DNA from: Blasia pusilla
Taxonomy: Eukaryota
NCBI GenBank assembly: GCA_050084515.1
Contig: CM114271.1
Coordinates: 48,732,001-48,796,000, forward strand
Reading direction: 5' to 3'
DNA: 64,000 nucleotides
Below, piece by piece: positions 4,111 to 64,000 of this stretch (positions within the stretch are counted from its first letter, which is position 1; every line of letters starts with the position of its first letter). Below the pieces are notes generated by a model. The model did no database searches, was not told the origin of the DNA, and was given only the letters and a program-made list of their open reading frames with translations. Made by a program: the position numbers and the translations under genes.

Positions 4111-4124
4111 GTACCCCGGAGGAG

Positions 4125-5080: not shown

Positions 5081-5479
5081 GAGTGGCGGCGTCGTATGAG
5101 ATCGCGACAGATCACGGCGGTTTGCGTTGGTGAGCCCCATGCCTCACGGAGACGGTGGAGGCAGTGGTCGGGGCGAGACCCGAGGAGATCTACGCACGGG
5201 GAGATCGGAGAGACACCCTTGACTTCTTGGGATGTTTTGCAGTACGCGAGGAGATGATAGCCACATCATCGAAGCGTGGTTTTGGGCAATCGCACGTTGA
5301 GGAGATCGAGTTTGCGATTGGATGAGGAGAGCGGCCGAGTGTTGTTGTTCGAGACGGGTTGCACCATAGCAACCGCCGATACCCGCCGGAGAGTCCTACC
5401 GTAGTCACGATGGAGACTTGGGAGCCGATATGGGCCCTAAGTTGACAGGAGGAGAGCGGCGCCAAAACATCAGTTCCTC

Positions 5480-6830: not shown

Positions 6831-7171
6831 CTGGAGCTCGATGGCATGGAGAGAGTGATGAGGAGTCGGTGCCAAGATGGCACGCGTCAGCCTATTTAGG
6901 CATGTTGGCTATGGAGAGCCAGAGTGTCTAGTGGAGAGTCCTTGGATCCCGAGGCCAGTGAGGACACGACAAGTGGCCGAGATATTCATGATGATGGAGT
7001 AGTCTTAGAGTACCTTCGTACTGGCACCTTGCGAGCACCATGGATGCTAGAGAGCGGGATCGGATCCTACAGCGGGCCAGATGGTTCCGTTGGGAGGGGA
7101 CACATGTTTTGAGGGTTTGGGAGGATGGTAGAGTACGCGTAGTGCCGCATCCTTTGTAGAGAGCACGACTA

Positions 7172-8236: not shown

Positions 8237-8276
8237 TGGTACAATAGATCCGAGCTTAGCAGTAGTTCTTGCAGGC

Positions 8277-8423
8277 TTGCGTTGTATGTTGTGTGATTCT
8301 GCCCGTGGTGCGGCCACGATGCTAGTCTGTGATGGGTGTTCGAGAGGATGGCATATGGCATGTTTGACGCCACCCCTCACTAGGGTTCCTCAGGGACGAT
8401 GGATGTGTCCCAGATGTACATAG
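8277..8423 (+). CDS. PHD finger ending the copy 1 polyprotein
   Basis: CMLCDSARGAATMLVCDGCSRGWHMACLTPPLTRVPQGRWMCPRC is a C4HC3 PHD; one frameshift at about 8232 separates it from integrase, but the fusion is in frame in copy 3 (ORF 53160-53594). Confidence 0.93.
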   Translation: MRCMLCDSARGAATMLVCDGCSRGWHMACLTPPLTRVPQGRWMCPRCT

Positions 8424-10047
8424 AGAAGGTAGTTCTACATTCCGACTTGTGTGTGTGACATGGATAACAAGGAGGCGACTAACGATGGGGCCACATGAGC
8501 ACCCGGCCTTCTTGCTCTTAGCGTCCGAGAGATGTATGTCATGGTAGGTAGGGATAGATGGCTATCTGGAGTTAGAGGGACCTAACCACCAGCTAGGGGG
8601 GCGATTGGAGATATTTTGGTACTTCTTGTCTCGTTGTTTGGATGCCATGAGTTAGCATGGGATCATGCGTGTTTCTGTGTGTGTTCGGTGACAGCGATGT
8701 ATGTTGTGTAGCGATGTGTATGCGCACGACAAGCTGTCACATCTTTTAGGATAGATCGATGGGATCTAATAGAGCGCCTTCATGAGTAGTGGAGGACACA
8801 CCCAGTAGGTTGAGGGTGACCTGGTGAGGCCCTTGGAAACCTGAGATAGCAGGTTTCCCCTTCGTTTCGGCTCATTTGGAGCAATATTGAGGAACTTACT
8901 ATTTTAGGTAAGTACCATTTGAGTATATGATCGACTTACTATTTTTGGTAAGTGGCCCTTGACCTCCTACATCAGGTCAAGAGCCAAGGAGGTGACTTGG
9001 GAGAATAGGTTACCATGGAGAGAGCTTGGGAGAGGGGAGGGGTATACCTCAAGGAGAGAGAGCTTGAGAGCTCATTCTCTCTTTGTTGAACCTCTTGGCA
9101 TGAGGCGGCGGAGCTATGGTACCTTGCCTTGTGAGTGTAACCCAAGCCTCTCATTAGGAGAGTGGGTTTGGTTTGACATGAGAGAGAGTGCACACCTTTG
9201 AGAGCTATGGTGTGAGATGGTGGAGAGAGAGATTGGATCTTACTTTATTGGAGATATTTTGGTACTTCTTGTCTCGTTGTTTGGATGCCATGAGTTAGCA
9301 TGGGATCATGCGTGTTTCTGTGTGTGTTCGGTGACAGCGATGTATGTTGTGTAGCGATGTGTATGCGCACGACACTTCAGTGCCATGGTTGAGGAGCATG
9401 AGTGACATCTAGAGGAGGTATTTTGACAATTGTACTTACATGGGCTAAAGCTACATCTAGGCAAGTGCAAGTTCTTCTACGACAAGATTGAGTACTTGGA
9501 TCATACGACATACCCAAATGACCTTGGTGTTTAGCACATGAAGGTAGAGGCTATCTCAAGCTTTCAGTGCCCTACACAAGTGAGTGGAGTTTGGGTATTC
9601 ATAGGATTGGAGAATTTCTATTGATAATTCGTCAAGGGGTTGAGTTTGATTCCAAAGCCACTAATCTTGTTGACCAAGATGGATCACGAGTGGTACTAGG
9701 TGAATGAGAATTAGAGAGTATTTCAACTCTCAAGGATGGATTAACATTCGTGCATATATTGAAGAAATTTATCAAGGGATGTCCTTTCTAGTTACATACA
9801 AATTGGAGTATGTTGGGGCTTGTAGCAGTGCTCACCCAACATGATGATGAGAATTGAGAGTTCATGGTGGCTTATACTTGTCACTTAAACAATATTGTAG
9901 AGGCAAAGTATAACTCATAGAAGAGTGAGTGTTTGATTGTAGAGTGGTTGGTTGTGCTTTGTTTAGGGTTTACTTGTTTGGCAATCCCCTTACCATTATT
10001 ATTGATCATCAACATCTTAAGCAACAAATGGAGTTCAACAAGCTTAT

Positions 10048-10575
10048 TGTCATGCGCTTACACATCGATGGTCACATCCACACCGCACAACACCGATCTT
10101 CCCCACTCACGGGTAGATCCATACATGTACAGAAATCAACTCATACATATACATCGAGATCACACAACAAAAGTAAGAGTAGTAAAAATGGCACAACCGG
10201 TCTAAATCTCCACTCCTCAGTCTACATCGGCATATCAAGCCTCGTCTACCTTATGCTCCCAAGAAATCCAGACACTAGCACCCTAGTCCTATCTCACACA
10301 CAAAAGAGAAGTGCTCCAACGACCCAATATGAGAAAGATGGCTTGGGAAAGCCATCTTCCTCCCTTATATTGGGTTGGTAAGAGCCAAAAGGCTCTTCTC
10401 TTAAAAATAGCTATCCTCTTGGTAACTTGCGCGCAAATGTTATCAAGGGCGGGTGACCTGCTCAACAAGTCACCCGGTTATGAAAGACCTCAACAAGAAA
10501 GTTGTCAGAAACGACACTCTTGACACAACGGATCTATTTTCAACCTCATCCGACACCTCGGGACAAATACACTTC
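10048..10575 (-). mobile_element. B repeat plus partial A repeat (3' end or solo unit) of the split-repeat family
   Basis: TGTCATGCGCTTACACATCG at 10048 is the reverse complement of the B end; 10100-10170 matches B at 21707-21770; about 10200-10570 matches 1-370. Confidence 0.8.
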
Positions 10576-11057
10576 TAAAACTTCTCAAAAATGTCTAAAA
10601 CTATTGGGATGTTAGTTTGGGTTGAGCCATAAAGGGCAATCCAAGAGGGACTCTTTGGAAGGAGGGGCCAAATGTCTCTAGAACTAAATATGAGGGGGAA
10701 GTGCCATGCGCATATACACCGGTTCATAACACACATTATCGTGCGCATACACGTCGCTACACAAATTGACACAATCCACATCGATATCGTTGGTCACATC
10801 CACACCATACAACACCGACCTTCCCAACGCACCGTAGATCTGCACACATCCAAAAATGAACTCATGCATGTACATCCAGAATCCACAAAAAAATCAGATT
10901 AAAAATGGCCAACTCCACTCTCGAATCTACATTGGCATATGAAGCCACATCCACCCTTCGCTATGAGGGAATCGGGATGCTACCACCCTAGTTCCTATTC
11001 CACAGGAAGGCAAAATTTTTTTAAGGCCCTACATGAGAAAGATCTCTTAAGAAAACC

Positions 11058-11059
<2 letters not shown>

Positions 11060-11151
<92 letters not shown>
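11060..11151. repeat. (CT)n microsatellite
   Basis: Pure CT dinucleotide run of about 90 bp. Confidence 0.99.
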
Positions 11152-17369
<6,218 letters not shown>

Positions 17370-17629
17370 GCCTTGGCTCTTCCCCCAAAAATAGCCTCCA
17401 AATGGTAACTTGCGTGCACAGGTGATCGGGTGAACGTTGACTAGGTCAATGGGTCACCTAACCAAAAATAGCAAAGAAGGGAAATCAGTAGAAAACACAT
17501 TCCCAACACAACGGATCCGTCGTCAATCTCATCTAACACCTCAGGATGAAGTTATATCCAAAGATTTTGCTGACCCTTTATGTCGTTGACACCGTAGAAC
17601 TCTACCTATTTGCCAACTAAGATGCGACA

Positions 17630-18116: not shown

Positions 18117-21100
18117 GGGTGGGGGCAAGACAAAGAGAGATAGCACCCATGGACTTCTTGGGACGTCCTCCGAGCGGAGAGTGCGAAGGCGTCTAGAGCA
18201 GCACATGTTCATTTTTTTGGATGTGGAGTATGGCGTAGGAGGTCAGAGTGGAGTGGCGGTTGCGGAGGTGGCTAGGGTTGCTACATAGAAACCAAAGGCT
18301 GAGGTTGCGTCCTCTCTGAGTGAGGTCACGATGGAGACTTAGGAGCCTATGATAGGTCTCAAGTTGATAGGAGGAGAGCAACGGCGAGTTCATAGGTTTT
18401 TGGAAGGGCATGTTAGTTGTTTTGCCTTCACTATGAGAGACTTGGGTACGTTGAAGGGTCCTGGGATACGGATTGAGTTGGCTAGTGATACGCCGATCTT
18501 TTGTCGATCCTATAGGTATTCTCGTATGGAGCGAGCCTTGATTCAGAGTAGGAGTCAGGACTTGTTGGAGGCAGGACTTGTGGAGTTATTGCATGGGGAG
18601 TATGCATGTGCCACAGTCATGCCGGCGAAGAAGAATATATACGGCAATCGGACGGATAGGCGGATGTGCGGGGATTATTGACCTATCAACCGACAGACAA
18701 AGTCGGATCGATATGCCATGCCTACTCTTGAGGAGATGTTTGATGCGGTAGGGCATGCAAAGATCTTCAGAACTTTAGATCTCCATGTTGGCTCTCATTA
18801 ACTTCCTATCAAGTTAGAGGACAGGGAGAAGACATAATTTTGGGGGATAGATCGGTTTGGGAGAGATTGTTTGTATTAGTGGTGGTTCTTACCATTTTGG
18901 TTGAAGAACGTGCCTACAGAGTTTCAGAGAGTGATGGATAGGATTCTGGCTGGCTTGGATTTTGTACGATGTTACATAAATGATATTCTTATCTTCAGTT
19001 CCAGGGTTGAGGAGCATGCGTATGAGTGACACCTCGAGGAGGTGTTTCGGTGATTGCAGTTACATGGACGGAAGTTCCATACAGGCAAGTGTAGATTCTT
19101 TCAAGACCAGATTGAGTACTTTAGACACACCATATACCCAAGTGGATTAGCTGTTTAGCAGACGAAGGTGGAGGCTATTGCGTAGATTCCATGCCCTACA
19201 GATGTGAGTCAAGTTCGAGCGTTTCTGGATTGACAAACTTCTATCGATGAAACGTCAAGGTTTTAATGCGATTCAAAGTCTTTGACATTCCTGACCCTAA
19301 ACTTGATCAGGTTTGGTTGTGGGGAGATGGTCAGGATCAAGCCTTTTAGGAGCTCAAGGATAGGTTGACATCCTCACCCATTTTACAGAGACCAATTAAG
19401 GGTCGCCCATTCCAGTTATATACGGATTGGAGAATGTTGGGTCTGAGAGCAGTGCTTACTCAAAGGGATGATGAGGAGAGGGAGTTCGTTGTGGCTTACG
19501 TAAGCCGATCGAACAAAATTGCAGAGGCAAAGTACAACTCCTATGAGGGAGAGTGCTTGGCTGCAATGTGGGCTGTGGCACATTTCAGGTGCTATCTATT
19601 CGGCAACCCTTTCACACTTATCACTGATCATCAGCCGTTGAGGTGGTTGATGGAGTTTGACAAGCTTATGGGAAGGCTTGCTAGGTTGGGCTCAATTACT
19701 ACAGGAGTATGAGTTTGAGGTGGCTCACAGGCCAGGACAGGTGAACCAAGATGTGGATGGGTTGAGTCGTAACCCATGTCAGAGAGATGACAAAGGAGCT
19801 CGATAGCACGGAGACAGTGATGAGTAGATGGTGCCCGATTGGCATGCATCTGCCTATCTTTGTTGGTTGATTATGGCAGGTCAACCGTTGGTGGTGACTC
19901 TAGTGGTGGGGTTGGATGATAAGTCTTTGCATCCAGAGGTCAATGAGGAGACGACAGGTGATCGTGATATCCATGACAACATGGAGGTTGTGGAGTTCTT
20001 GCGTACTGGCATCATAGCGAGCACAGTGAGTGCTAGGGAGCGGGATCGGATCCTACAGAGAGCGAGGAGGTTTAGGTGGGAGGGGACTCACATTTTGCGA
20101 GTATGGGGAGATTGTAGGATACGAGTGGTATCTAATCCTTCCCAGAAAGCACATGTAGTGCGACATGCCCATGAGGAGTTGGGGCATTTTTGAGTAAAGC
20201 GTACTTACAACTTACTCTAGGTTCAGTATTGGTGGCGCGGCATGCATACCGAGATACAATAGTTTGTGGCCAGATGTATGGTATGTGACCAAGTGCTAGC
20301 ATCCTTCAATGCTCCCACTCCGTAGTTACATCCTTTGTTGATTACGAGTTTAGGTTATCAGTGAGTTTAGACTTTGCGAGAGCTTCGCCATTGACGGGGC
20401 GTCATCACAAGTACGTGTTGGTTATGGTGGAGCATTTCTCCAAGTGGATAGAGTTGGTGGCACTATCGGACAAGGCAAGCAAGGGAACACCTTATGCATT
20501 TCTAGATTGTGTGCTTAGTCACTTTGGTGCACCGGCAGAGATGTTGACTGACCAGGGTACCGAGTTCAAGAGAGAGTTTCAGGCCTTGTGTAACCAGGGG
20601 CTAATAGATCACCGCACCACATCCAGATATCATCCTGAGGTGAATGGGTTGACGGAGAGAGAGTAGTACACATGGTGAAGAGAGGATTGGGCAAGTATGG
20701 CTATACAGCGGGGACAATTGAGGGAGTGGGATCTACAGTTGCCATGGTTGGCTATGGGTTATGGCTTTAGTCGGCAGGCATCCTTGGTGTCATTTTTATC
20801 ATTCTCTTTGCTCTTTGGGAGAGAGCAAGATTTACCTACAACTATTCAACGTGACATGGCAGAGGTGTTAGATCTTGATGATCCAGATATATGGGTACAA
20901 GCGTGTTCTCAAAGGGCGGAGACTTTTGTAGACTTATGCCCATGGCCTTTGAGAATGTAGCTATTGCTCAGCATAGGGATACATTGAGGTATGTGACCAT
21001 TCGTGGAGGAGGTTATCTTCAAGCTTCAATTTGTACGTGCACTTCGAATAATACCCCGGGCCTGCGTGTAGCACCCACGTTTGAACAGGTTTTTCGTAGT

Positions 21101-21884
21101 GAGAGATGAAGACCTCACCCTCGGTTTTCCGATACGCCTTGACTTTCGGAGAAATCACATCAGCGAGTGAGTGCGCTTGTTTGATGAAGACCCCTCCTGC
21201 ATGCTCCAGCACCAAAACCTCCCTTGACCGTCTAGGGATTAGAAGGTTTCATCCCAGAGATTACGTGTATTTATAAAATGCGGCACCCACGACGCTAGAT
21301 GGCACTACACGGTGCACGATCCAACATGTGCGCGAGATTTTACCGACCAGAGTCCTCATGTTGGAGGGACGGGATGGTATGGTTTGGAAGGATCATGTGC
21401 GCAACTGTGCGCCATGTCACCTTCCCAACATGAATGGGATAGTGGATCAGAGCTTGGCAGTGGTACCTACACGCTAGCTTGAGGTGTATGTTGTGTGGAT
21501 ATGCGAGGGATGCAGCCACCATGTTGGTCTATGATGGTTGTTCTCGAGGGTGGCATATGTCATGTCTGACCCCCCCCCTCTTGATGTAGTTCCCACGTGA
21601 CGATGGATATGTCCGAGATGTGTATAGTGTAGTAGGTCATGTCAGGGAGATGTGATATTTTCTATATAGAGTTGGGGGGATCCAACTGCCAACTAGGGGG
21701 ACGGTTGTGTGATCTCGATGTATATGTATGAGTTGATTTCTGTACATGTGTGGATCTATCCGTGTGTGGGGATGTGATCAACGATGTATGTTGTGTAGTG
21801 ATGTGTATGCGCACGACAATTGTCACATGTGAGTAGCCGATAGGCCGAGATCTATCGTGGATAGGGCATAGGAGGCTGCAGACT
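18117..21884 (+). mobile_element. Truncated, decayed copy 2 of the family: RT, RNaseH, integrase, PHD, B1 (about 21705-21818) and the start of A2 (21821-21884)
   Basis: RRMCGDY, CYINDILIF, LYTDWRMLGL, HAHEELGHF, LTDQGTEF, PHD remnant about 21480-21625, then CTAGGGGGACG and the junction GCACGACA-AT-TGTCACAT. Confidence 0.92.
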
Positions 21885-24800
21885 TCTCCTAGACAAGGTT
21901 AGCGTGGCGCAAAAATCTTTCTTGTGAATGTGCATGATAAGAGTATGTATAGAATTGTATGTCAAACTCCTAAAAAATTTCCAACATAGTGTCCTAGCGC
22001 TTGCCTCTATAAGTAACCTTATAATGTTTGGAAGATGACACCAAAGAAAATTAAAATCCTAAGGAAAAAAAGTACCGACCTAAGAGATAACTACACAAAA
22101 TCCCCTTAGCTTACTCACTCTTCATTTGAGAGCTCCTCAAAAATTTTTTATGGCTTTCCCCACCCTATGGTTGGAATCTTTGGCAAGAGTGATTGAATGA
22201 CCACCAAAGACTCAACTTATTGTTCGGAAAGGGGAATAGAAGATTGGCAAACGCTCATGTGCATCTCACAATTTTCCTTTATCCTCTTGGAAAATGCCAA
22301 TCTCTACATTCCAAGCAAGGGATGTTACTTCCTCTTTGTATAACCAAACGCACACCAATGAGGAAAATCATAACTCTAGTGGTTTATATTCGGATAGAAA
22401 TACGTTGGAGTTTCATGAGCGACTAAGACCAAGGCATTAGTTACAGAAAAATGATGCGAGCCTAAATAGGCTTCTTGAATAAAAATAGATTTTTACTCAA
22501 GTAAACATTATCAAATGCAAGTTGGAACTTGAGAAAAGCTCAAGTTAGAGAAGACTCCAAGGAGGTTCCAACCTAGCTTCAGAACTGAGTGATCATTTAA
22601 TGGCTCTCCAAATTTGAGTTCATGGAGGGTAGACCCAAGATTATTTAGGTATGAATAAAGTGGCATTGGAAAGCTTAAGATAATTTGATTCCAATATACC
22701 AAGACATCACCCTTGCAAACGAGTCTACAGCAAACTACAAATTACCATCAAGCAAGCCCACCTCTTGGATGATGACCCTAGACAAATTGGGGCTATAGAA
22801 CCCAATTTGTGTGAGCTTAATGACAGGCCAAGAGTAGCGGATCTATAAAAGTCTCGTCGAAAAATCATGGCTCCAAGAGATGCAACCTTTTAGGGATCAC
22901 CTCCCGTTGATGTGTATGAATGCTTTAATAGTCATGATATCTACAAGACCACGTCAACATTGGAACTAATGCTTATCAAATTTACACTATAGCTTGTTTC
23001 ACACTAAAATTCTTACACATTGTATGCATGACATGGGATTGTTACAACACATAGGAGCATATGATGCACTTAATCTCCTAACTTCTCAATTCCATGTTAT
23101 AATCATCAAGTGGACCCACTACAAAGCCTAGAAAATTAGAAATGCCTATTTTCAAAATTCTCTCCATACTAGGAATATATTTTTATTGATGATGACTCAA
23201 GTATATGAGATAAGAGACTAGATTTTAGAATACATTTTAGAGGTGGGACTATGCTTTGATATGATGTGTTGTAAATATTTTGTTAATGAAAGTGCACAAT
23301 TTTCCTATCTAGATTTGGTTTTCATTGTTTGTTTGATTGCCTCTTTTTAATTGTGGATTCTTTGGTTGTGCAACGATTTAGATGAGCTTAATAAAGACAC
23401 TTGGGACTTTGTTCACCCTTGAAACATGATGGTGGCCACTTTAGCAAGAGAACATAAGATGAACGTAGATTGTGGACACAAGATCATGATGAGTCTTGTT
23501 CTATGAAGGATAGGATTGCATTTGTAACAATATGACACAAAAAATTACTTACTTTGCTGCCATGGTTTAGAGTGGTGGAGAACATACATGTGCTTAACTT
23601 GGACTCCGACACTTTTCTCTCTATTGTTTTAGAATGTTAATGGTATAGGATACTATCATGTGGTTTGGATCCTTCTATCGTGTTTGACAAGTGTGGGCAT
23701 GAAAATAATTACGTACATCTAAACTCATGCATATCAAGCCAATGGTCGTGAGGAGATGAGCCTTTCATATTTCTATCTTAGGTGAAGCAATTCTCTTGCT
23801 TTCACCATCCCTTGGTTAACCAAGGGATGGTGAAAGCAAGACACTTTATAGACGGAGATTTGTAATTCCGTATACCCTACACAATTATTATAGGATATAA
23901 TACCCATTTAGAGGTTGTCTCTATGAAGGAAATGGATGGTTCCTCAGTGAAGTGGCTCACATCTATTTATCAATTTTGCAACTTACATTTTAAAAGTTAA
24001 TGTGCTTCAAAGTCCATTAAAAAATGTCTCCAAAAATGTCTCGGACCAATTGTTATATGAATAATTTTTACGAGTGCATTGATGGTCTTTCCACATCTTG
24101 TGGATGATTTTTTGGTGGATTGTTAATACTCCCAGGTGAGTGTAATATTTAGTTCTTAGAAGATAAATGAACAGAACAATTACCTTCAAAGAGTCTTTGC
24201 GATGGCCTCAACTAAAACACCCGTGACGTGAGTAATAACCACTTCTTTTTCTTAAACGAAAAGAGGATAAGACGAGTTCTAATCATTTGTTGCTATTCGA
24301 AGAGGTCTTGACAGGCGTGTTTAGGGTAATCTTGAACATGGTCATTTTTAATGGATTCTACTAAAAACCAACCTTTTGACATATTTCAGACGCATGATTT
24401 ATACCTTAGAGGGTACCTTCACGTCCAAGACATGTTGCAGGTTTCTTCCTCTGCAGGAAACAAGTTCTTTTCCGTTTCTTTTAATATGGGCAATTACGAC
24501 ACCTTTCTATGGGAAATTTGAAAGTAAAACTTTCTACTCTACTTGACAGATCGACTTATTGTTTCAAAAACTTTTTGACAACTACCTTGAAGACTTCATG
24601 CATCGACGAAGCATTTTCAACCAGTGATTATTTAGCAAACTCAACCTAACTAAAGTAGAGTAGATTAATTTGCTATGGTCAATAGTTTTGTTTCACACCC
24701 CATCCTATGAAAACTAAGATGTCAACATGGTTCTTCAAATCAATGGTAATAATGTTACTTCTAATTTTCCACCCTTCAATTAAATCCATGAGGTGAAAAC

Positions 24801-52039: not shown

Positions 52040-53061
52040 TTTGTGTCGTGCGAATACACATCGGTGCCAACATACATCGATTGTAATGGACACACATGTC
52101 TAAGATCCATCTAGCTATGAATCCTAACATCTCTATACATGAACCACTAGACAACCCCAACATAAAGTTGAATACAAACTTTAAACTCTGATGAAATCTG
52201 CAATCAACCGTGCTTCATCCAAACAACCATACTCATGATTTTGATACGCACTGGTGTGACAGCAAGAGAAAGTATACACAAGGATTCCCAAAATGTGTGA
52301 TCTCCTTATCGATCACTCCTAGCCCACTCTTCAAGAGAGAATCCAGGCTCAATACATGCATGTCATAGTGTATCACGGATCCCAACAAGGGTCTGCAATC
52401 CTAAGGAGATGAGCTCCAAATGAGACTCATTCGAGGTATACTCCCCTGGGCACCTCCATAGGTGATCTGTACATACAGGTCACTACCAACTTGTAGTACA
52501 CCCATACTAGCTCCCTAACAACTACACATGTGGTCCCCTAATGAGACCAACTACCAACTAACTCATGACCCTATAGGTCCAAGTGGAGCCATAGATGGCT
52601 GGGAAGGTCAACTTCTCCAAGATTGCTACTCATAAAGGGAAGGGTGACCTACACTCCTAGGTCCCCTCCTAAGAGCAGGTCACATATGACCTCTCAAAAT
52701 AAGGAAGTACAAGACCCCTCTAAGGCCTCGATACTATCTCGCCCTACGCCTCATCTACCATGACATTTATCGTGCGAATACACATCGCTGCCAACATACA
52801 TCGGTTGTCATGCACACACATGTCTAAGATCCATCTAGTTATGAATCCTAACATCTCTACACATGAACCACTGGACAACCCCAATCGTCCCCCTAGCTGC
52901 TGGTTAGGTCCCTCTAACTCCATATAGCCTACAAAACAAGTCTAAATGCTATGCACCTTTTCGGTGCTAAGATCAAGAGGTCGGGTGCTATGTGGCCCCA
53001 TCGTTAGTCACCTTCCTGCAATCCATAACATCAAGAGTCATCTTGTATCTACCTTTCAATT

Positions 53062-56000
53062 CTATGTACATCTGGGACAAAGCCAATATCCTTGAGGAAC
53101 CAAGTGAAGAGGCGACGTCAAACACGACATATGCCATCCTCGAGAACATCCATGACAAACTAGCAGACCCACACAACATGCATCGTGGTTGCGCCTCTGG
53201 CAGACCTACACAACATGCATCTCAAGCCTGGAGGAACAACTGACAAGCTCGGATCAATCCTCCCATCTACGTTCGGAAGATGACATGGCGCACAATTACG
53301 CACATGATCTTTCCAAACGGTACCATCACGACCCTCTAAAACAAGGACTCCTGAAGGTAAAATCTCTCCCACTTGTAGAATAGTGCGTCCCGCCATCACA
53401 TCTAATGTCGTTGGCGCTGTCTGTTGTAGGTAGACATAATCGCTAGGATGGAATCGCCAAGTCCTTGGTCGATAGCCTCCTCCCCGCGTAGTTGCGTACC
53501 TCAGAGTATTGCGATGTTGAACGATAGCCAGATTCTCAAACGCCATAGGCATGACTCTTTGAAAGAGCTCAGCCCGTTGAGAACACTCTCGCACCTTCTA
53601 CTTCCAATAGTTGCTTACTACTTAGCATACGTCTGGATCATCGAGGTCAAGTACCTCACCCACATCTTGTTGAATTGACGCCAGTAACTCTGGCTCTCTC
53701 CCATAGAGCAAGAAATATGGTGAAAATGATGCCCAAGATGTTTGCCAACTGAAGCGGTTACCCATCGCCAACCATGGCAACTGTAGGTCCCAATCTCCCA
53801 AGTGTCCTCTCTACAGTCCATACTTGCGCAATCCTCTCTTTACTGTCTGGACAACTCTCTCTGCAAAACCATCTGCCTCCGGATGATCTCGCGAAGTTGT
53901 ACGATAGTCTCTCAGTGCCTAATCACACAAGGTCTGAAAGTCATCCCTAAACTCACTACCCTGGTCTGTCAACACCTCTGCTAGTACGCCAAAATGACTA
54001 AGCACTCTATCAAGAAATACATAAGCCGCTCCCTCACTCGACCTATCCGGCAATGCTACCAACTCAATCCACTTGGAGAAGTGCTCCACCATGACCAACA
54101 CGTACCAACTATGGCATCATGTCAATGGTAAAGGCCCTGCAAAGTCTAAACTCCAGTGATACCCTAACCCCATGATCGGTAAAGGATGGAAGTCTGGTGT
54201 TGGAGCATTGAACAATGCCTGCACCCTATCACATACAATGCATATGGCTACAAATTGCTGAACATCAATCTGCATACCACGCCACCAATACTAAATCTGA
54301 ATCAAGCTATACGTACGCTTGACTCCGAAATGCCCTAACTCCTTATGAGCATGTCTCACAACTCGTGCTCGCTACAAAGGATGCGGCACCATGCGCACTC
54401 GTCCATCCTGCCAAACTCAAAGCACATGTGTCCCCTCCCACTTGAACCTCCTGGCTCGCTGTAGGACTTGATCCCAATCTCTAGCACCCACCATGCTTGC
54501 TAAGACACAAGTGAGCATGTACTCCAAGACCATCTCATCATCGTGGATGTCTCCAGTCCCTATGGACTACTCACTAGTATCTATATTTGAGGACTCACCA
54601 TCCAACCTCCCTCCTCGAGTGGATGCCTCCTGCTGATCTGACATAGCCAACAAACACAAATAGGCAGATGCGTCCCAACCCGACACCATCTCCTCATCAC
54701 TCTCACCATGCCACCACGCTCCAGTACATCGCTCTGGCTCGTGCATGGGTTACAGCTCAACCCGTCCGAATCCTGGTTCAGATGCCCTGGGCGATAGACA
54801 ACCTGAAAATTGTACTCCTGCAACAAGAGTGACCATCTGGCAAGATTCCCTATAAGCTTGTCAGACTCCATCAACCATCTCAGTGGCTGATGATCAGTGA
54901 TGAGTGTGAAAGGGTTCCTGAACAAATAACATTTGAAATGGGCCACTGCCCACATTGTAGCTAAGCACTCCCACTCATAGGAACTGTACTTCACCTCCGC
55001 AGTGTAGTTTGAGCGGCTCGCATACGCAAGTACGTACTTCTTCCCCTCATCATCTCTCTGAATGAGCATCGCTCCTAACCCCAACATACTCAAGTTCGTA
55101 TGTAACTGGAACGGATGACCACGCATAGGTTCCTCTAAATGGGTGAGGACGTCAACCTGTCCTTGAGCTCTTGAAATGCTCGCTCTTGATTATCTCCCCA
55201 AAACCACTCCTGATCCAACCTAGTCAGCCAAGTCTAGAGTCCTACTCTCGATCAAGCCTCGCTCCATGTCAGAATACCTGTAGGGTCGTCGGAAGATAGG
55301 ATTATCACTATCCACCTCGATTCGAAAATCTGGACCCTTCAGCGTACCCAAGTCATGCATACTGTATGCAAAATAGTCCCTGATCTCCACATGAATTGCA
55401 ACACTCGTCTCCTCTTTGCTCCTGTCAACCAAGGACCAATCACCGGCTCCCAAGTCTCTCTCCTGACCTCTGGAGAAGAGGAGGGTGGTGGATGCTAACT
55501 AGCAACCTCTCGAGCAGCAACATGCGCTCCCAACTGAGACACCAACTCTCTAGGCACTCCACTATGTCTTGCATCAGCGAAATGAACTCCCATCTCTCTA
55601 TGCTCTCGAGACATGTCCCATGAAGTCCATGGATGCCTTTCCATCACCATCGCACCCCCAGCCAGTGTCTCACCCGTCCCGGTAGACGCTGTGCTGCAAA
55701 GTGGATGTAATGTCACAGACACCTCTCGCATCCATCTATGCTCAGCCAAAACAAGATTGAACACCCAAGTAAGACAGTTCAGGTCCATAGCCTGACCCAA
55801 TACCTGTCTGCGGGATGCCTCTGCCATCATAGGCACTGCCGTCGTACGTGTAGAAAACCCCATAGCTCGCTCTCGCTCGTCGACGTTGGGCTCCACCAAT
55901 GTATCTGCATGCTCATCCCATATCATGCCTGGTCCTCCCTGACAAAAAGCATGAGATGCCGGAAAACTCACCAATGTAGGCAATGCTGCCTACCGTTGGC

Positions 56001-59000
56001 CCACCCGATTGGCCATTACCAACGGTGGTACATCATCACGAGTAACAACCTGAGATCACCGCCCTAGATCCAAGATCGCATCCACTGGTAGTAGTAATGG
56101 TCTTTGGACTCCATCATAAGCACGTCTCAATAACTCGGATGGTAAAAGGTTTGTCCACCACAATCATGGACGGTGTGCGTGCGATCCAACACTCTCCGCA
56201 TCCAATATCACCGCCGTTCCTATCCATGACCGCACTTGATGTACACTCGCCATCACTCTGGCTCGAGTGTTACCTAACAATGGGACATTCTCCAAAATGT
56301 AGGCTGGAGAACATCGCTAGGTAGTCTGCAAGTGACGAAGAACTCGCAATATCTCTCGAAACATGGCCCATCTCAGATCCTATAAACCAAGCCCCCGACC
56401 CGCCAAAGAATGATCATGACATGGCCACCCTGCCACCACCAAGTGTATTGGACTAACCCTATCCAGATCTCGCGCCCCCAACAACGAAATGTCGGTCGGA
56501 AATACATGCTGATATCTCCTGACTGCACACACTAGCAATAACTGAAGATACTGCTGGACTAGTCTCGACGCATGATGTAATGAGACTCTACGTGCAGTCT
56601 CATCCCTCTCAACATACAAGTACAGCTATACTCGTACTCCAACCTGCAACATTGCATCCAACACTGTACTAATCCTTCCAAAGAGATCTAGTTTACATAC
56701 ACCCTCCTCGAGATACTGCCACACAATCACTGTGGTGTCCAAGAGGGCCAACGTCTCCACTCCTAGAGCACGTGGTAACTGTGTCCTGTCTTGCTCTAGA
56801 GCATAGGCTTGGCTCCATGCCTGCCTCACAAACTCGTCTGCTCTCCTCTGCAAATCGATGCTCGTCCCCCACAAAACTGAAGAAGTATCGCCAGTAGATG
56901 TAACCATGCTCGTCATCGCATACCACTCCTCAGGACTATCCTCCGCATTGGCGTTCCCCTCCAGTAAATCTCCATTCCAACATAATGTGCCACAATAAGT
57001 AGCAACTGCTGAGGTCGATCCTCGGAGTGAACCATCAAGTCTCCTTGCAAACTGCATGGGTAGCTGATTGGCTCGTCCCTCACCTGATTGCCAACCTGGT
57101 CGATAGGAGGCTGTCTCCTCCCAAAAGTCAAGTGTGAACCCTAGAGGATACAATACGGTAGACCCTACCAAAACATCATAAGACTCGGTCGGTGTCACAA
57201 TCGCTTGCGTCCGCACCATCGCACTATCCGTAGGATGATCTGGCTGAATCCTCACCGCAATCTCATCGCAAGTCATGAACTCTGTCGAGGATGTGCCTCT
57301 CAGTGAATTCTGAATCTAAAATGGACATGGAGTGATCTCACACTTCCGCAATCCCATCGCTACATATGTTTCCTTCCCCAACATAAGGGGTTGTGCTCCT
57401 GAATCAAGTAGCACTCTCTACTGTTGATACACGACTCCGGATGGACCAATGAATTGGAAAACTCCATCTCGGTTGTCCAAGACAACAACTTCTGGTGAGA
57501 CGGCTGCACGCTCTATTGCTGGTCTAGCTGGCAACTCCGCCACTCTAGCCGCTGTTGTATGCTAACTCTCTGTGGTCCTTGTTCCGAACACCTGCTCCAA
57601 GGGTACCTCTGCCAAATCTCCTGTGCGAGTCTCAACACTAGAAGAACCAAACTCATCGCTCTCACAAAGCGTCGCCGCCAATCGGAAAACATCAGCTTGT
57701 CGACCTCCACATGTCAACAAATCTCTGGTCGTAAATAGTGGGACGCTACACAAATCTGTCGCAATATCTCATAACGTGCCAGTACTAGGCCGTGTCAAAT
57801 GATGCATAGGCCTGGTAGACGTACTCGCCTCACTTGCTCCTCTAAATGCATCGGCATCTGCGACAACAACACTCTGCAAAGGCCATCTAGGGACCATCGA
57901 TGGGGTTCGAAGAGCCTCTGACAATGTAAAAGACTGGGGAAGTCTAGCCTGCCTGCCAGCCTCTCCCCTGTGGGAATCCAACTCCACATCGGATCCTCGT
58001 GGCTCAGAAGCTCTCACCGTCCCTCTCGTAACCACTGCATCTGCATCCACCTGTGCGGTGTTGCACAAAAATCCCATACCTCCTAGATCTCTCGCCATAT
58101 CCTGGGCCTGAGTAGATCCAGAAGTTGACGCGCCCCCTGCACCTGAAGTAGATGCTTGTTGGGCCGACATAGCCTGAAGGCGTCGCTCCAACTGAGCAAT
58201 CCTCGCCAAAGCTGCCTTTGATGCAAGTTCTACACTCGCTCTGGCAGATGGTGGGGTCCTACCTCCACCACGTCTTCAACCTCCTACACCTCGTCCTTTG
58301 CCACCTCCAGGTCCTCGACCTCCCTCTAGGCGCAGCTCGAGGTGGAGCTCGAAACATCTCTCACGTGTGTGCCAATATCTCTGGCAATGATCACATTGAG
58401 GTAAGGGTAGTTTCCCTTAGGCCACCTCATAAACAAATGATGGTGCTGCCTGCATTCCAGTCTGCTGTCTACAATCTTGCTGACGATGTGATCCTCCACA
58501 TGTCCAACAAGAAATACGTGAGCCCTACTGCCTAGCGTATGACTGAACTGGTTGTGGTCCTGGCTCCCGGTATCCTCCCGTAGCCCTCACTCCCATGACT
58601 CTATCTTGAATAGTGCACTAAGGCACTGATGGAGACATCGTCACTCGTGGGGTCTCCCTCGAAGATGACACGCGTGTCATGAAAACTCTCTCCTCAAGTA
58701 TGTTGAGCTCAATCCGCTCCACCAACAAAAATACACACTTGAGAGTAGGCGAACCAACATGTAAGAGAGTTTCATCTTGCACTCTCTTCCGCAACTCGCG
58801 GTCTAGCATTGCATACCAGAATTGAGCCGCTTGCGCCTCCGTCACACCCTAAGTTGATGTGATCAACCGTTGGAGCCGTGCATAGGCCTCTCAAAGACTC
58901 TCTCCTGCTCTCCGCTGAAACTCATGAATTGACTTCAGCTTGTCGGTCCTCACCCCGCGATAGTTCCTCCCCAACTCTCGGAAGAACTCAACCAATGGGT

Positions 59001-59608
59001 TGAACGCGGGTGGTACTCGGTTGGTCCTACTTGTAAGACTCGGGTCGACAACTCCTCCAAGTGTCTTCTCCGTGCGGTTAGTGGGTGCTACTATAGCCGC
59101 CACATCATACATCGCACGTCCTATGAGGGACACATATCATTGAGACCAAAATAGGCTCCACGCCTTGATCTCTGCCTCATGGAGAATCCAAAACTTGTGA
59201 TAATAATCCATGGGAGGGCCCTCCACATGCTGAAAAAGTCCCTTCCAAGCTAAAAGGGTCGAATCTTTGCTGGTTCAGCATCCTTTGTGCATCGCACCAA
59301 CTATCAAACTCCTCCATAAAATCATCCAACTCGATGGTTCCCACCATGCCTGAGAACTGTCGGGTTCCCCTCGTGGACCCATACGTATCGCAATCATCCA
59401 TGTCCCACAACAACGGTGTGGCAACACTCGCGACACTCCGTGGCCTCTCGGGTAACTCAAAATTTGTTGACGTCACCTCTAGAGTAACTACAACTGGCGG
59501 CTAAGGTGGTTCTTTGTGTGGAAACCCTCAATACCTAGCCCCACTCCGTGTAAATCCTTCGCCACTTCTACCACTACCACGCTCCCCAATACTATGTGGA
59601 TGCGCCAT
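53062..59608 (-). pseudogene. Disrupted gag-pol polyprotein of copy 3
   Basis: Putative start MAHPHSIGERG at 59608; DKLKSIHEFQRRAGESL; VLLDSGAQP (about 57390-57416); HTNLSMLGLGAML; LTDQGSEF; ends CPRCT*. Confidence 0.85.
55740..56705 (-). pseudogene. C5 DNA methyltransferase domain of copy 3
   Basis: LDLFGRIS, YVERDETAR, PTDI, HLVVAGWPC..HS.AG, YILENVP (about 56283-56305), VEPNVDERERAMGF, RRQVLGQAMD. Confidence 0.9.
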
Positions 59609-60135
59609 GGTGAAACCTGCAAACTACTATGACTCACTCCCGAGCCACTAGCTTTGCACTAGACAATGCCGAAACTGTGGACAGGCCCCCACTTATCTCA
59701 CTTGAGATCAACACTCGGCAAATAGCCCGCACACTAAGTCACTCTTGACTAGTGTGGTATACATCCATCCCACCAAGCTCTCTACAATAGTTGCGTTAAG
59801 CAACTATTGTAAGTGAATAAATCCCCCTGTGTGCAATAACTAGCCATCACTTCCTTGTGGGTGTGTTCTAACACAACATGCAAAATAACTCTCAAGTTAA
59901 GCACACTCTGGAGGAATAGAACTCGGATGGGTGACCTAGACGTTATGCTAAACCGGATCAACATCAGCTTGCCAAGTCCTCACGCCCGCCAGCAAGTTGG
60001 CGCCTCACGCCCACTCGCACTTTCGACACCTCTCCCACCTCGAAGCCTCGAAATGCCGAGAATACCCGTGATTCATCTGCCTCACCTCCCGCTCACTTCT
60101 CCGCCGCGCTTCGCTGTGCCAAACTCACATGTGAA

Positions 60136-61622
60136 TGTCAACTTCAGTTCCAATTCGCACCGCGCCAGATCTGTAGGAGACTAAGGTGGGAATGGGAACT
60201 TCAGTTTTGATTCTTGCCTGCACCAAAAGAGACTACCTCGGGATAGAAAAGGGCAACGGATTGATCCCAATGAGAACTTGGGTTCCGATTGCTGCGCTAC
60301 TTTGCCAACTCGCCTAAACTTGGACGTATGAAAATCCTTCACCTAAAAGAGTGCCAAATTGGAACTTCAGTTCCAAATGCTCTTGGCTCACTCCTTCCTT
60401 CACAGAAGAATGACGAAATTGGAACTGAAGTTCCAATTGCTCACTCCTCCCTCTCTGCTTCACACGCCGTGCCGCGCCTTCGTAGGGAGAGCCGCGCCCA
60501 CTTGACACTCTATGGATTGGAACTACATTTCCGATTCTTTCTCCTTCCTCCCTCTCCGCGCCTAAAGAAGAGCCACGCCCCAATTGAAAGGTCACGGAAT
60601 AGGAACTGAAGTTCCAATTCTTCTCTCCTTCCTCTAAACGCCGTGCTGAAATTCAGAGTCACGCCAACCTCACTCCTTGGGCCGTGCCAAAGGGGATCAG
60701 AACTTGAGTTCTGATTGCCTTCACTATCCTCTCCACCTCCCTGAAGAGAACCCACAATTGAGGAGCGGAATCAGAGCTACAGTTCTGATTCGTGGTGTGT
60801 CATCTCCACCTCCCTGTAGAGAAGACACACCAAAACTCAGGAGCGGAAAGGGAACTAGAGTTCCGATTGCCTCCTTCCTATCCTCTCCATGTCCTTGTAG
60901 AGAAGACCCACAAGTGAAGTGCGGAATGGGAACTGAAGTTCCAATTTCCTCCTCACTTCACTTCACTTCCCTACGCCGCCGCACTATGCCACGCCATAGT
61001 CAACAACACTTGAGACACTCCACTATTTTCCAGCTGCTACAGAATTGGAACTTGAGTTCCTAATCCTCCTTGCTTCCTTGTCACTCCTGCCACGCCAATC
61101 TCTGCTAAGCCATCGAGATGACCACCATGCAGTTGAACCAAGCCTTGGCTCAACTGTGCTCATAATGGAAGTGGAGTTCCAAATCCCTTTTGCAGCTCCT
61201 TGTCATCCTTGCCGCGCCGTGTCGTGTCACGCCCTTCAGATGACTCAACCCTTGTTGTTGAATCAAACTTCAGTTCCAATTCCCACTTCGCCGCTTTGCT
61301 CCAAACTGTGTCTTGGGAGGGATCTCCTAAATCAGAACTTAAGTTCTCATGCCTCCCTCAACTCCACCAACTCTATGGCTAGCAGTTCTAGTTACACTCC
61401 AATAACAACTCCAAACTAGTGGTATTAGTTCCTCCATACTAGCGGCATCCCAAACCTTTCCCAACCTCTCACCGAGGAAAAGCTACATGGTAGCTTCTTC
61501 CTTGCCTTTCCTGAACCACGTTCACAAGGGAAATCGGAACTTCAACTCCGATTGAAGAGCTCTCCTCCTCCTCACTCCTTCTCACTTTCCAACCAAGGGC
61601 TATCAGAACTTAAGTTCTGATG
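60136..61622. repeat. Array of about 17 dispersed 22-bp palindromes (consensus AATYRGAACT-NN-AGTTCYRATT) in the leader of copy 3
   Basis: Copies start near 60136, 60191, 60269, 60357, 60417, 60515, 60598, 60695, 60769, 60847, 60925, 61043, 61163, 61261, 61330, 61532, 61601. Confidence 0.88.
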
Positions 61623-64000
61623 CCTCGCAGAACAGCTCCAGCGCTGCTCTTCTACCCTTTCCATACCGGTGATCCCCTCATCTCAAGGAATCTGTGCGAC
61701 TATGGGGAATCTTTTGGAATCTTTCTTAAGCGAGCTCCATTTCTGGTCTCGTTTTCACTATTGCACTCAGTTTTTGCAATCTTTCCAATGGTGAATTCAA
61801 CTCTCATAAAATCCTGCAAAATCAAACACCATTGTGCTCTCCTTACATTCACTTCTTGCTTGATTTTCCTCCTGCCCAACATTCATCCGATTTGGTCCAG
61901 AATCAAGCACACCCCACTCAAAATCAGCAACGAAGTGCCCACGCACTTGCTGACTTGCCCACACTCAATCAGGTCACGATTGACACTGATTTCCTTACCA
62001 TAATTATCGTAGGAACTCCATCCCTACAATCTGATCCTTAATTGCTCCACTCTTGAGCAACTCCACTAGGATTGAGAAGCCTCCTCCTCTTCAAATCCTG
62101 TTACATCTGTCGCATTGCACAAATTTCTCAATTTTGAACATCTCACTTTGATTGCACCAATTCTTCTGCCCCTTGTCCTTCCGCATGGTCAGGATTCACT
62201 AGCTTGCAATTTTTGCAAACTCCACAGTACCACAATTGTGCTCTACACCACAAATTGAGTCCGACTTTCTCTTCTATTCAAAACCAGTGTGCATCTCATT
62301 AGGATATAAAGTTGAATACGAACTATAAACTTTGATGAAATCTCCAATCAACCTTGCGTCATCCAAACAACCATACTCATGATTCTGATACGCACTGCTG
62401 TGACAACAAGAGACGGTATACACAAGGATTCCCAAAATTTGTGATCTCCTTATTGATCACTCCAAGCCCACTCTTCAAGAGAGAATCCAGGCTCAATACA
62501 TGCATGTCGCAATGTATCATGGATCCCAACAAGGGTCTACAATCCTAAAGAGATGAGCTCCAAATTAGACTCATTCGAGGTATACTCCCCTGGGCGCCTC
62601 CATGGGTGACCTGTACACGCAGCTCACCTCCCTCCTAGCAGGTCACTACCAACCTATAGTACACCCATACTAGCTCCCTAACAACTACACATGCGGTCCC
62701 CTCATGAGACCAACTACCAACTAACTCATGACCCTATAGGTCCAAGTGGAGCCATACATGGCTGGGAAGGTCAACCTCTCCAAGGTTGCCACTCCTCATA
62801 AAGGGAAGGGTGACCTACACTCCTAGATCACCTCCTAAGAGCAGGTCACATATGAACTCTCAAAATAAGGAAGTACAAGACCCCTCTAAGGTCTCGATAC
62901 TATTCAGCCCTACGCCTCATCTACCATGATATTTGTCGTATTGTACAACAGTGAGCATAGCAATCCCAAGCCTTTTACCACTCCGTAACTATTTTGGATC
63001 TAGTCTCCTATTCATGCCAGTGATCAAACACACAACAAGGCCCTTTACAAACCCCTACCTGTTGTATCACATATATACTCTCAATCCATGCCAACACAAC
63101 CTTGTTGCCCGTAAATTTGATAATCATCTGCATCTGTTTCAACTTCTTCCATCCACGTGTTTACTAAACTTACAATTTTTACCTATTTGTTTCCACATTT
63201 TCATGGAATATCCATTGTTTTCTCTTTACTACACTTCCAATTTTTATCTATATGTTCCCACCTTTTTAGAACTCGCCCATTTTTTTCTCCGTTTTCAAAG
63301 TTGTTGTACTGCGCTGGTAACTCCTACATTGACTCTATGAAGGGCCGCATTCTTGTTAATTGGCATTGCTCTTGATTGAGATGGCCGCCCGTTATCTGGG
63401 GAGAGTTGAACTAGGGAGCTCTTTGGGAGGACTTTGTATCAATTTGGCCAACCTCTTGTCACCTAGTGCTCGATGGAGAGAGGTTGGTTGGATTGCAATT
63501 CATGTGGCAAATATGGACTTGAGAAGCCTGTGTTTTGTGAAGAGTACAATGAGGCTTGAGCAAAAGGTGTAGTACGCATTATGATGGGCCATACATACAC
63601 TATGCCAAAATAGGAAAATGTTACATTGATGACATTCTCATCTTATGATAACACATGTCAAATTGTGAATCTATTGCCTAATTGGAGGATGCAAATTTTT
63701 TTAGCCATTATGATAGACACATCACTAGATATCTTTCAAAAATATTTGTGATCACGTTAAATAGGGGTTATACAAAGAGGTTGGTAAGGAAAGTGAACTA
63801 TTAAATGCAAATTTGTGCATCTCATAATCCCTTACTAGTTCGATTAAATGGGATAACACATTATGTAGGCCTAATTAACATGACCGAATCTTACACTTTT
63901 CTATCCAAAGCCATACTAGGAAATAGGCTGTTGGAGAACAATTTCATCACGAATAGACGTAGGTGCCGTGAAAGCCAAAAGGCACTCTTTGTGGTAGAAG

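Follow-up and report, generated by a model that had tools for sequence, protein, structure and literature searches.

The retrotransposons described here are integrase-using Ty3/Gypsy elements whose direct repeats are split in the order A-internal-B-A-B, and this layout is a trait of their clade. The window, i.e. the whole stretch of 64,000 nucleotides from Blasia pusilla that was analysed, holds three such copies. We propose, with a probability of roughly 45% for the model as a whole, that the elements undergo canonical reverse transcription, that the ends of their cDNA are joined and that integrase cuts a junction internal to the repeat; of these steps, joining and cutting are purely inferred.

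Copy 3 (52044..62931, minus strand) is bounded by the target site duplication (TSD) CAAA at 62932-62935 and 52040-52043 and reads A1-internal-B1-AA-A2-B2. A1, the 5' LTR (U3-R-U5) of 626 nt at 62306..62931, has a 5' terminus that is now TA, decayed from TG. It is directly followed by the self-priming site ATCCTAATGAGATG (62292..62305); further in lies a long 5' leader (60353..61569), in which a 42-nt unit holding the palindrome GGAACTnnAGTTCC occurs in 9 dispersed copies. At the other end, a conserved 21-mer GGAGTTAGAGGGACCTAACCA (52901-52921) and the polypurine tract AGGGGGACG (52886-52894), which abuts B1, precede B1 (52768..52884, 117 nt, 3' terminus ..CGCACGATA), the 2-nt spacer AA (52766-52767), A2 as the 3' LTR (52161..52765, 605 nt) and B2 (52044..52160, 117 nt), whose terminus ..CGCACGACA is the right integration end. 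Identity is 90.2% between A1 and A2 and 93.9% between B1 and B2. The homology of the two A copies stops at ..CAACTTTAT, after which A2 continues into B2 and A1 into unrelated sequence; the best local match between the sequence past the end of A1 and B is just 8 nt.

Copy 1 (1098..9374, plus strand) is a young element nested in an older relative, whose RT gene it interrupts, and has the TSD CTTC at 1094-1097 and 9375-9378. Its flanks, minus one TSD copy, give an unbroken alignment to the RT region of copy 1 itself and thus provide a natural empty site, from which it follows that the inserted unit is exactly A1..B2. A1 (1098-1574) lacks its final 36 nt, and the priming site is gone as well. The 3' end consists of the polypurine tract AGGGGGGCG (8595-8603), B1 (8604-8731), the spacer AGC (8732-8734), A2 (8735-9246, 512 nt) and B2 (9247-9374). 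B1 and B2 are 100% identical, A1 and A2 99.4%. Copy 2 (18435..21900, plus strand) is a relative that has lost its 5' part but keeps RT, RNase H, integrase and PHD finger; its polypurine tract and B1 (21699-21818) are followed by the spacer AT and by A2, truncated downstream of its start at 21821. In addition, a tandem (A'-B1)-spacer-(A2-B2) on the minus strand (10048..11200) lacks the internal part and comprises B2 (10048-10197), A2 (10198-10736), B1 (10737-10913) and A' (from 10914 upward), inside which a (CT)n microsatellite has expanded. The first-pass annotation had read the split layout of copy 3 with B1, spacer, A2 and B2 of 117, 2, 605 and 117 nt, a B1(128)-A2(512)-B2(128) end with an unrelated A repeat in copy 1, and B1-A2 in copy 2. 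The first is confirmed to the base, and the coordinates and the unalignable A repeats bear out the others.

The layout extends well beyond the window. Among related metagenome loci, the order polypurine tract-B1-spacer-A2-B2 was found in 20 of the 36 clusters that could be assessed, scattered across the entire integrase tree, and eight clusters contain copies with B1 only. It was thus rightly suspected to be a family feature and not a set of independent rearrangements. The three window copies share it although their A repeats are mutually unalignable. The unit A1..B2 is enclosed by exact TSDs in copies 1 and 3 and at the locus L009 (CATA); none is evident at L053 and L037. A 19-mer from the end of B occurs seven times in the window (0 expected), and in public runs both RNA reads and DNA contigs cross from the B end through the spacer into the A start. 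This count, the recurrence of the layout in independent assemblies and the junction-crossing reads and contigs rule out chance. In run X23, 19 RNA reads span the B end, TC and TGTCACAT.., and hence B1-spacer-U3 is transcribed. All four window subfamilies share the B terminus ..CGCACGACA, and the last ~40 nt of B are conserved across lineages. The A copies start with TG and end in ..TTT or ..TAT, not in CA; the right end of the element is that of B2 (..ACA). A2 is not terminal, and the elements do not have two identical terminal TG..CA LTRs flanked by a TSD. B1 resembles B2 inside each element while B differs among lineages, so both go back to one template.

By its domains and repeat layout, the element is an integrase-using Ty3/Gypsy member of the streptophyte Gypsy-DNMT3 clade; the name "streptophytes (Gypsy-DNMT3)" is used in a 2026 preprint (10.64898/2026.05.21.726589). 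The gene order is gag, a protease-like stretch, a Dnmt3-like methyltransferase, RT, RNase H, an HHCC/DDE integrase and a PHD finger. Copy 1 thus has the Ty3/Gypsy pol order RT-RNase H-integrase with gag upstream: gag, a weak match (1604-2197), Dnmt3-like domain (4141-4914), RT (5941-6309), RNase H (6424-6744), integrase (7160-8236) and PHD finger (8127-8423), all on the plus strand. Pfam matches are RVT_1 (1.6e-10), RT_RNaseH_2 (7.9e-10), Integrase_H2C2 (7.1e-17), rve (1.9e-11) and DNA_methylase (PF00145, E=5.3e-9), the latter sited between the protease-like ORF and RT; the protease match is weak (gag-asp_proteas, E=0.19). The reading frames of copy 1 are broken. In copy 3, tblastn with the copy 1 ORFs recovers a decayed coding region with only short ORFs left (53065..59199, minus strand), comprising gag (58603-59199), the protease-like or unknown part (56713-57930), the Dnmt3-like domain (55921-56466), RNase H (54962-55123), integrase (53268-54371) and PHD finger (53065-53330). 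The order gag, unknown ORF, DNMT, RT, RNase H and integrase, including the Dnmt3-like domain, is repeated at the loci with sufficient upstream sequence.

The methyltransferase had gone unmentioned in the first-pass annotation. All 22 matches of its ORF in PDB are to DNMT3A/B/C; its best named relatives come from Calypogeia, Marchantia and Sphagnum (45-55% identity), and Klebsormidium is not among the names of the 24 matches. No chromodomain was matched in the copy 1 ORFs, where the PHD finger follows the integrase instead. The HHCC/DDE integrase of Ty3/Gypsy type, the TG..CA ends and the 4-bp TSDs that had been reported from the letters alone agree with the Pfam matches and with CTTC and CAAA. 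The tyrosine recombinase profile search suggested at that stage (Phage_integrase, PF00589) gave no match in 19 copy 1 ORFs (10 searched at E<=0.01, 9 at E<=1), and all long plus-strand frames of copy 1 are assigned to other functions.

Two kinds of cis signals bear on replication. The site ATCCTAATGAGATG after A1 of copy 3 is complementary to A positions 377-390 at 13 of 14 nucleotides, which none of 300 shuffles equalled. The copy-1-type priming site is complementary at 14 of 14, and 28 RNA reads of run X22 leave A at its end and enter CAAAGAGAGAATGAG.., whose reverse complement is A 1434-1448. Complementarity amounts to 13/13 to A2 in L009 and 13/14 in L037 (0/300 shuffles in both cases) and is not significant in L053. 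A self-priming site of 13-15 nt is thus present at four of five independent 5' ends, and its sequence varies by lineage with the complementarity retained. The priming target lies ~30 nt past a TATA-like motif, GTATACC in copies 1 and 3 or GATATAA in L037. From this motif, transcription is predicted to begin at the target, as in self-priming of the Tf1 type; A1 of copy 3 (62306..62931, minus strand) carries GAGTATACC as TATA-like motif and CATCTCTTTAGGAT (62542-62555) as predicted start region. The sequence shows A to be a complete LTR.

The second signal is the polypurine tract. Despite their non-aligning A repeats, copies 1 and 3 agree fully or almost fully in the 21-mer and AGGGGG(G/A)CG, and B1 starts 0-3 nt past the G-run in 16 of the 20 loci listed; in L030 the G-run beside B1 is absent. 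The end of the A1/A2 homology coincides with the start of the self-priming site in A1 and with the start of B2 in A2, such that the A2|B2 junction is the U5 end fused to the first base after the polypurine tract. A stem-loop upstream of the tract, also considered, is unsupported (62% of cells paired versus 63% with the partners slid by one column).

Self-priming site and polypurine tract together make reverse transcription look canonical. It would yield a linear cDNA in which the repeat is B-spacer-A, i.e. [B-s-A]-PBS-internal-PPT-[B-s-A]. The termini of this molecule, B start and A end, would not be TG and CA, and the integrase sites (B end ..ACA, A start TGTCA..) would lie internal to each repeat, where CA-spacer-TG resembles an LTR-LTR circle junction. 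The integrases of PFV and HIV-1 are described to cut 2-LTR circles at the palindrome where the two LTRs meet (PMC1180852, PMC1905944, PMC4372172). Here, the U5 end of the cDNA might be joined to its own B start, either in a 2-LTR circle or when cut DNA is repaired. Integrase might then, in line with that precedent, cut within the left repeat at its junction and insert the permuted A-PBS-internal-PPT-B-s-A-B with a 4-bp TSD. The integrated copy would then be the cDNA circularly permuted at its internal CA-spacer-TG site, with A2|B2 representing the joined cDNA ends and B1-s-A2 the template for the next junction. A point against a circle is that it would carry two identical junctions, and if either can be cut, a form A-B-s-A-internal-B should be as frequent as functional copies; the five independent elements whose 5' ends were read (copies 1 and 3, L009, L053, L037) include no such form. 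The odd step seems to be the making of integration ends and not reverse transcription. That throughout the clade, in bryophytes and streptophyte algae alike, the ends on which integrase acts are uncoupled from those that reverse transcription generates, with joining of the cDNA termini and the internal CA-spacer-TG cut as obligatory steps, is a tentative generalisation that we consider doubtful.

A route as in DIRS and Ngaro elements appears unlikely. There, RNA would extend from inside A1 to B2, first-strand synthesis would begin in B2, close to where the RNA terminates, copying of the B1-A2 bridge would restore the left end and integrase would trim at TG and CA. The layout is the same as published for PAT, Ngaro and TOC elements, such a bridge (ICR) is reported as experimentally essential in DIRS-1 (PMC7192593), the conserved last ~40 nt of B could reflect a signal for priming or processing at the 3' end, and the B1-only copies of eight clusters could stem from template switching between B2 and B1. 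However, this route leaves the conserved, co-varying self-priming site and the tract abutting B1 without a role, and does not account for B2 beginning at the expected plus-strand start or A2 finishing at the U5 end. A primer site after B2 was sought and not found, nor was significant pairing between B and the leader; a tyrosine recombinase is absent from the 19 copy 1 ORFs, and TSDs are present. Of the distinct replication route that had been inferred in the first-pass annotation, the DIRS/Ngaro-like form is disfavoured by the cis signals, which point to ordinary LTR-type reverse transcription, and an unusual integration-end step may stand.

Quite improbable, though resting on identical cis evidence, is a variant confined to reverse transcription, in which the plus strand of a canonical cDNA jumps at the U5 end to the start of B, on its own cDNA or on a second one, and copies B and more, with neither ligation nor circle, and integrase acts at the first right CA-spacer site and strips B-spacer on the left. 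It would produce the functional form only, which fits the five 5' ends. Against it, in copies 1 and 3 the end of A has no homology to the sequence preceding B1 that could guide the putative jump, and a stretch of ~60-130 nt would need to be trimmed off a 3' end by integrase. That the layout reflects separate rearrangements, nesting of solo LTRs or faulty assembly, for which the tandem A-B-A-B at 10048-11200, the missing TSD of L037 and the lost priming site of copy 1 could be cited, is refuted for practical purposes by the 20 of 36 clusters over the entire integrase tree, the shared layout of three copies with unalignable A repeats, the exact TSDs around A1..B2, the natural empty site of copy 1 and the junction-crossing reads and contigs of other runs.

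Replication of LTR retrotransposons is taken to yield a pair of identical LTRs, with integrase acting at their tips. The present clade, which is large, old and still transcribed, departs from this rule and keeps integrase, TSDs, primer site and polypurine tract. Its recognisable cis signals make a long-standing question, the end regeneration of retroelements with split direct repeats, testable with ordinary tools. Standard LTR finders would mis-call the ends, as had been foreseen, and genomes of bryophytes and charophytes will be mis-annotated accordingly; such programs may report an "LTR + 100-nt tail", a truncated element or wrong insertion ages. The pairing of methyltransferase and PHD finger is relevant to the way transposons handle host chromatin. 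Integration from a circle junction was abandoned for retroviruses in the 1980s-90s. If the uncoupling of ends holds true, such integration would be the normal route in this clade, and one could account in the same way for the split direct repeats that tyrosine-recombinase elements have.

Contrary to the initial view that the layout was undescribed, the legend of Fig. 4c in de Mendoza et al. (2018, PMC5890265) describes KnitGypsy-Dnmt3 of Klebsormidium nitens as having DIRS-like repeats and Gypsy domains; that description of the repeats gives no mechanism, TSDs, priming site, polypurine tract or PHD finger. Our elements resemble its published description in the A-coding-B-A-B order and in that a Dnmt3-type methyltransferase is set into the polyprotein region of a Gypsy pol. 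New with respect to this literature are A as a full LTR with a Tf1-type self-priming site, the polypurine tract abutting B1 and the make-up of the A2|B2 junction. Neumann et al. (2019, PMC6317226) describe Tf1/Sushi and the plant Tcn1 elements as self-priming chromoviruses with no tRNA-type primer site and with non-seed plant hosts. Our elements also lack a tRNA-type primer site, carry a self-priming site at four of five 5' ends with a predicted transcript start, and share non-seed plants as hosts with the Tcn1 clade. In contrast, those elements have two complete TG..CA LTRs (440 bp with a 5-bp TSD in SM-Tcn1, PMC2864245) and a chromodomain, whereas here A lacks the CA end, and a PHD finger after the integrase and a methyltransferase are found.

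The order A1-internal-B1-A2-B2 is shared with PAT, TOC, Ngaro, VIPER and SymbioDIRS-Dnmt3, which encode a tyrosine recombinase and no DDE integrase, and for which we know of no described 4-bp TSDs. As in those elements, the internal junction of B1 and A2 matches the element ends when these are joined; our elements differ in their integrase, TG..CA ends and TSDs, and in having a self-priming site and a polypurine tract. A further likeness is to the published 2-LTR circles of PFV and HIV-1, where cutting a CA-(few nt)-TG junction by integrase gives integration-competent ends, as it would here. Unlike in retroviruses, where this is a side route, it would be obligatory in our elements, with the junction inside each repeat.

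The layout A1-internal-B1-spacer-A2-B2, in which A is an LTR-like repeat and B a short repeat, was measured in the Gypsy-DNMT3-type elements of the window, and all repeats were located where the first-pass annotation had placed them; its observation of split repeats is real and correctly measured. In copy 3 (52044-62931, minus strand), A1 (62931-62306, 626 nt) and A2 (52765-52161, 605 nt) are 90.2% identical, and B1 (52884-52768, 117 nt, followed by the spacer AA) and B2 (52160-52044, 117 nt) are 93.9% identical, with CAAA as TSD at both ends. The homology of A1 and A2 stops at ..CAACTTTAT, from where A2 continues into B2, while the sequence after A1 gives a best local match to B of 8 nt and no similarity beyond. 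Upstream of this A1, the 8 nt at 62932-62939 (ACGACAAA, CAAA of the TSD included) are identical to the end of B together with the spacer at B1-A2 (ACGATAAA); chance, a target preference or the remnant of an unprocessed left end could account for this.

Copy 1 (1098-9374, plus strand) consists of A1 (1098-1574), B1 (8604-8731, then the spacer AGC), A2 (8735-9246) and B2 (9247-9374), with 100% identity of the B copies, 99.4% of the A copies and the TSD CTTC. It has inserted into the gene for RT in an older relative, and its flanks, minus one TSD copy, align unbroken to copy 1's own RT region near the YIDD codons. This represents a natural empty site, and the inserted unit is therefore exactly A1..B2. 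Copy 2 (18435-21900, plus strand) retains polypurine tract-B1-AT-A2 and is truncated after that, and a fourth place (10048-11200, minus strand) carries a tandem (A-B)-spacer-(A-B) that lacks any internal part. A (CT)n microsatellite has grown in one A copy of this tandem (11060-11157), and a similar (CT)n block is found at 17223-17373. Other, unrelated repeat families of the window comprise a tandem of a unit of about 630-650 bp (39751-41027, 80% identity) and two inverted pairs with 78-82% identity (13767-15045 versus 50252-51541; 15721-17019 versus 37079-37821).

Metagenome contigs were scanned with the copy 1 integrase, which yielded 80 loci (L-numbered) of 34-82% identity in 48 clusters by integrase DNA; 12 clusters with less than 900 nt downstream were left out as unjudgeable. 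PPT-B1-spacer-A2-B2 (PPT, polypurine tract) was observed in 20 of the 36 assessed clusters, 8 stop at the ..ACA of B1 with unrelated DNA directly after, 2 are cut inside B and 6 have no visible B, and since L009 and L043/44, L055 and L058/59, as well as L037 and L078, are the same insertions from sister assemblies, the independent counts are somewhat lower. The direct repeat pair measures 57-111 nt, its copies lie 209-462 nt apart, and in most of the 20 clusters it starts 290-450 nt past the integrase match. The loci ending at B1 without A2-B2 are L010/12/28, L013, L024, L037/78, L040-42, L060, L067/68/70 and L069; L060, a sibling of L001, likewise passes from ..ACA into unrelated DNA, and L037, the only one with its 5' end in view, is internally rearranged and showed no TSD. 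In a quick integrase tree, rows bearing the pair fall on either side of the deepest split. The split-repeat layout is a trait of the clade.

Loci with enough upstream sequence share gag, an unknown ORF, DNMT, RT, RNase H and IN. In copy 1, Pfam matches were obtained for DNA_methylase (5.3e-9), Integrase_H2C2 (7.1e-17), rve (1.9e-11), RVT_1 and RT_RNaseH_2, along with a weak gag; all 22 matches of the methyltransferase ORF among solved structures are DNMT3A, 3B and 3C. The first-pass annotation had recognised the integrase and overlooked this DNA methyltransferase. The search for a tyrosine recombinase that it had suggested was run on nine further copy 1 ORFs up to E=1 and found none, the same scan giving a weak aspartyl-protease match. 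A PHD finger (PF00628, E=4e-12 in copy 1) lies just 3' of the integrase, at 8127-8420 (+), 21329-21624 (+) and 53065-53335 (-), and follows the integrase in 66 of the 80 metagenome loci; it is conserved across the clade and takes the position that the chromodomain has in chromoviruses. The frames of PHD finger and integrase ORF differ in copy 1. Copy 3 retains these parts in unchanged order, though decayed. Its 3.1 kb leader, almost absent from copy 1, contains nine dispersed 42-nt units around the palindrome GGAACTnnAGTTCC (60353-61569).

The element is of the Gypsy-DNMT3 kind. Its methyltransferase ORF has named relatives in Calypogeia fissa, Marchantia polymorpha and Sphagnum, which places the clade in bryophytes. 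In these three, RVT, RNase H and DNA_methylase domains occur together in annotated proteins, so that Gypsy-DNMT3 is common among liverworts and mosses and not confined to the alga first reported. The layout is not new: the odd repeats of this kind were noted once, in the legend of Fig. 4c of de Mendoza et al. 2018 (PMC5890265), which gives KnitGypsy-Dnmt3, the Klebsormidium nitens element, DIRS-like repeats along with Gypsy domains. In the passages available, the main text of that paper offers neither a mechanism nor a TSD or cis signal. The name 'KnitGypsy' was found in this paper only when full texts were searched. Besides the legend, we found in print only a passing mention, 'streptophytes (Gypsy-DNMT3)', in the accessible part of a 2026 preprint (10.64898/2026.05.21.726589); supplements may say more on the structure of KnitGypsy-Dnmt3. 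DGLT-A of Dictyostelium, considered as a parallel for supposedly modular, non-identical LTRs, was dropped, the available passages not mentioning this trait.

What makes the element of interest is its replication route. The 14 nt that follow A1 in copy 3 (ATCCTAATGAGATG) match the complement of A positions 377-390 at 13/14. The copy 1 type has expressed copies, from which 28 reads of a public RNA run (X22) pass the end of A and enter CAAAGAGAGAATGAG.., an exact match to the reverse complement of A 1434-1448 (14/14 positions scored). L009 shows 13/13 against A2 and L037 13/14, and for each of these four none of 300 shuffles was as good; in L053 the complementarity is not significant. The complementary target lies about 30 nt downstream of a TATA-like motif, where the transcript is predicted to start, at 1434/9071 of the window in the copy 1 type, and the priming sequences vary among lineages with the pairing maintained. 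The pairing next to A1 is the signature of Tf1-type self-priming, which marks A as a full U3-R-U5 LTR. The A repeat ends in ..TTT or ..TAT, not CA. ARAGORN detected no tRNA-like sequences in the window, and inspection of copies 1 and 3 revealed no TGG-type primer site after A1. In the A1 of copy 1 itself, the final 36 nt of A are missing together with the self-priming site, replaced by CATG + G13 + CGCC (1575-1603), with ATGG microhomology at the break; this young copy could thus not have primed reverse transcription of its own.

At the other end, copies 1 and 3 share a 21-mer plus the polypurine tract AGGGGG(G/A)CG directly 5' of B1. B1 starts 0-3 nt past a G-run in 16 of 20 listed metagenome loci; in three others the boundary given by BLAST is 7-13 nt further on, and in L030 no G-run adjoins B1. 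The B end is ..CGCACGACA in each of the four subfamilies of the window (7 matches, 0 expected) and ..CAC(A/G)ACA in the metagenome loci, A starts with TGTCA, and the B1-A2 spacer is 1-4 variable bases. While lineages differ, the B1 and B2 of a given element resemble each other, so a single template is copied into both. The A2|B2 junction is the U5 end joined to the expected plus-strand DNA start base. For the stretch 5' of the polypurine tract, no conserved stem-loop was predicted by RNAalifold, and a hand-drawn helix was no better than itself slid by one column; long-range pairing of B with R-U5-leader was not above shuffles in any of four elements. RNA read depth drops after B1, but this is no evidence that polyadenylation occurs there, as reads were required to be 95% alike and the A repeats differ among subfamilies. 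No transcript start or end at the predicted places and no splice joints were called from the RNA reads.

These cis signals narrow the puzzle to the step from cDNA to integration. Given that a primer site follows A1 and a polypurine tract precedes B1, reverse transcription by the textbook route would yield [B-s-A]-PBS-internal-PPT-[B-s-A] (PBS, priming site; s, spacer), of which the integrated A-PBS-internal-PPT-B-s-A-B would be a circular permutation, in which the left repeat is opened at its CA-s-TG junction and the former termini meet as A2|B2. From this permuted form we propose, as a model, that the two ends of the cDNA become joined, through a 2-LTR circle or through repair that follows cleavage, and that integrase then acts on the internal CA-s-TG junction. 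A DIRS-like route, in the style of tyrosine-recombinase elements, had been suggested by the first-pass annotation; the layout behind it is real, but the route gives neither the primer site nor the polypurine tract a function and is unlikely. An end-to-end jump by reverse transcription only is a little less likely still. Rearrangement or artefact is excluded by the clade-wide recurrence of the layout. A1 was located in L009, L043/L044 (the insertion site of L009) and L053, in each case with no B upstream, and L009 has the TSD CATA.

Under the end-joining model, one-repeat circles cut at the same junction would give A-internal-B copies, and the loci ending at B1 may be such products; recombination of B1 with B2 would leave an identical product. 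The model further predicts A-B-s-A-internal-B copies. No locus has a second B upstream, most 5' ends of the B1-only loci lying beyond the sequence covered. The predicted self-priming site after A1 resembles the Tf1-type self-priming predicted for the plant Tcn1 clade (Neumann et al. 2019, PMC6317226), and the proposed cut of the internal junction resembles the action of PFV and HIV-1 integrases, which are reported to cleave 2-LTR circle junctions (PMC1180852, PMC1905944, PMC4372172).
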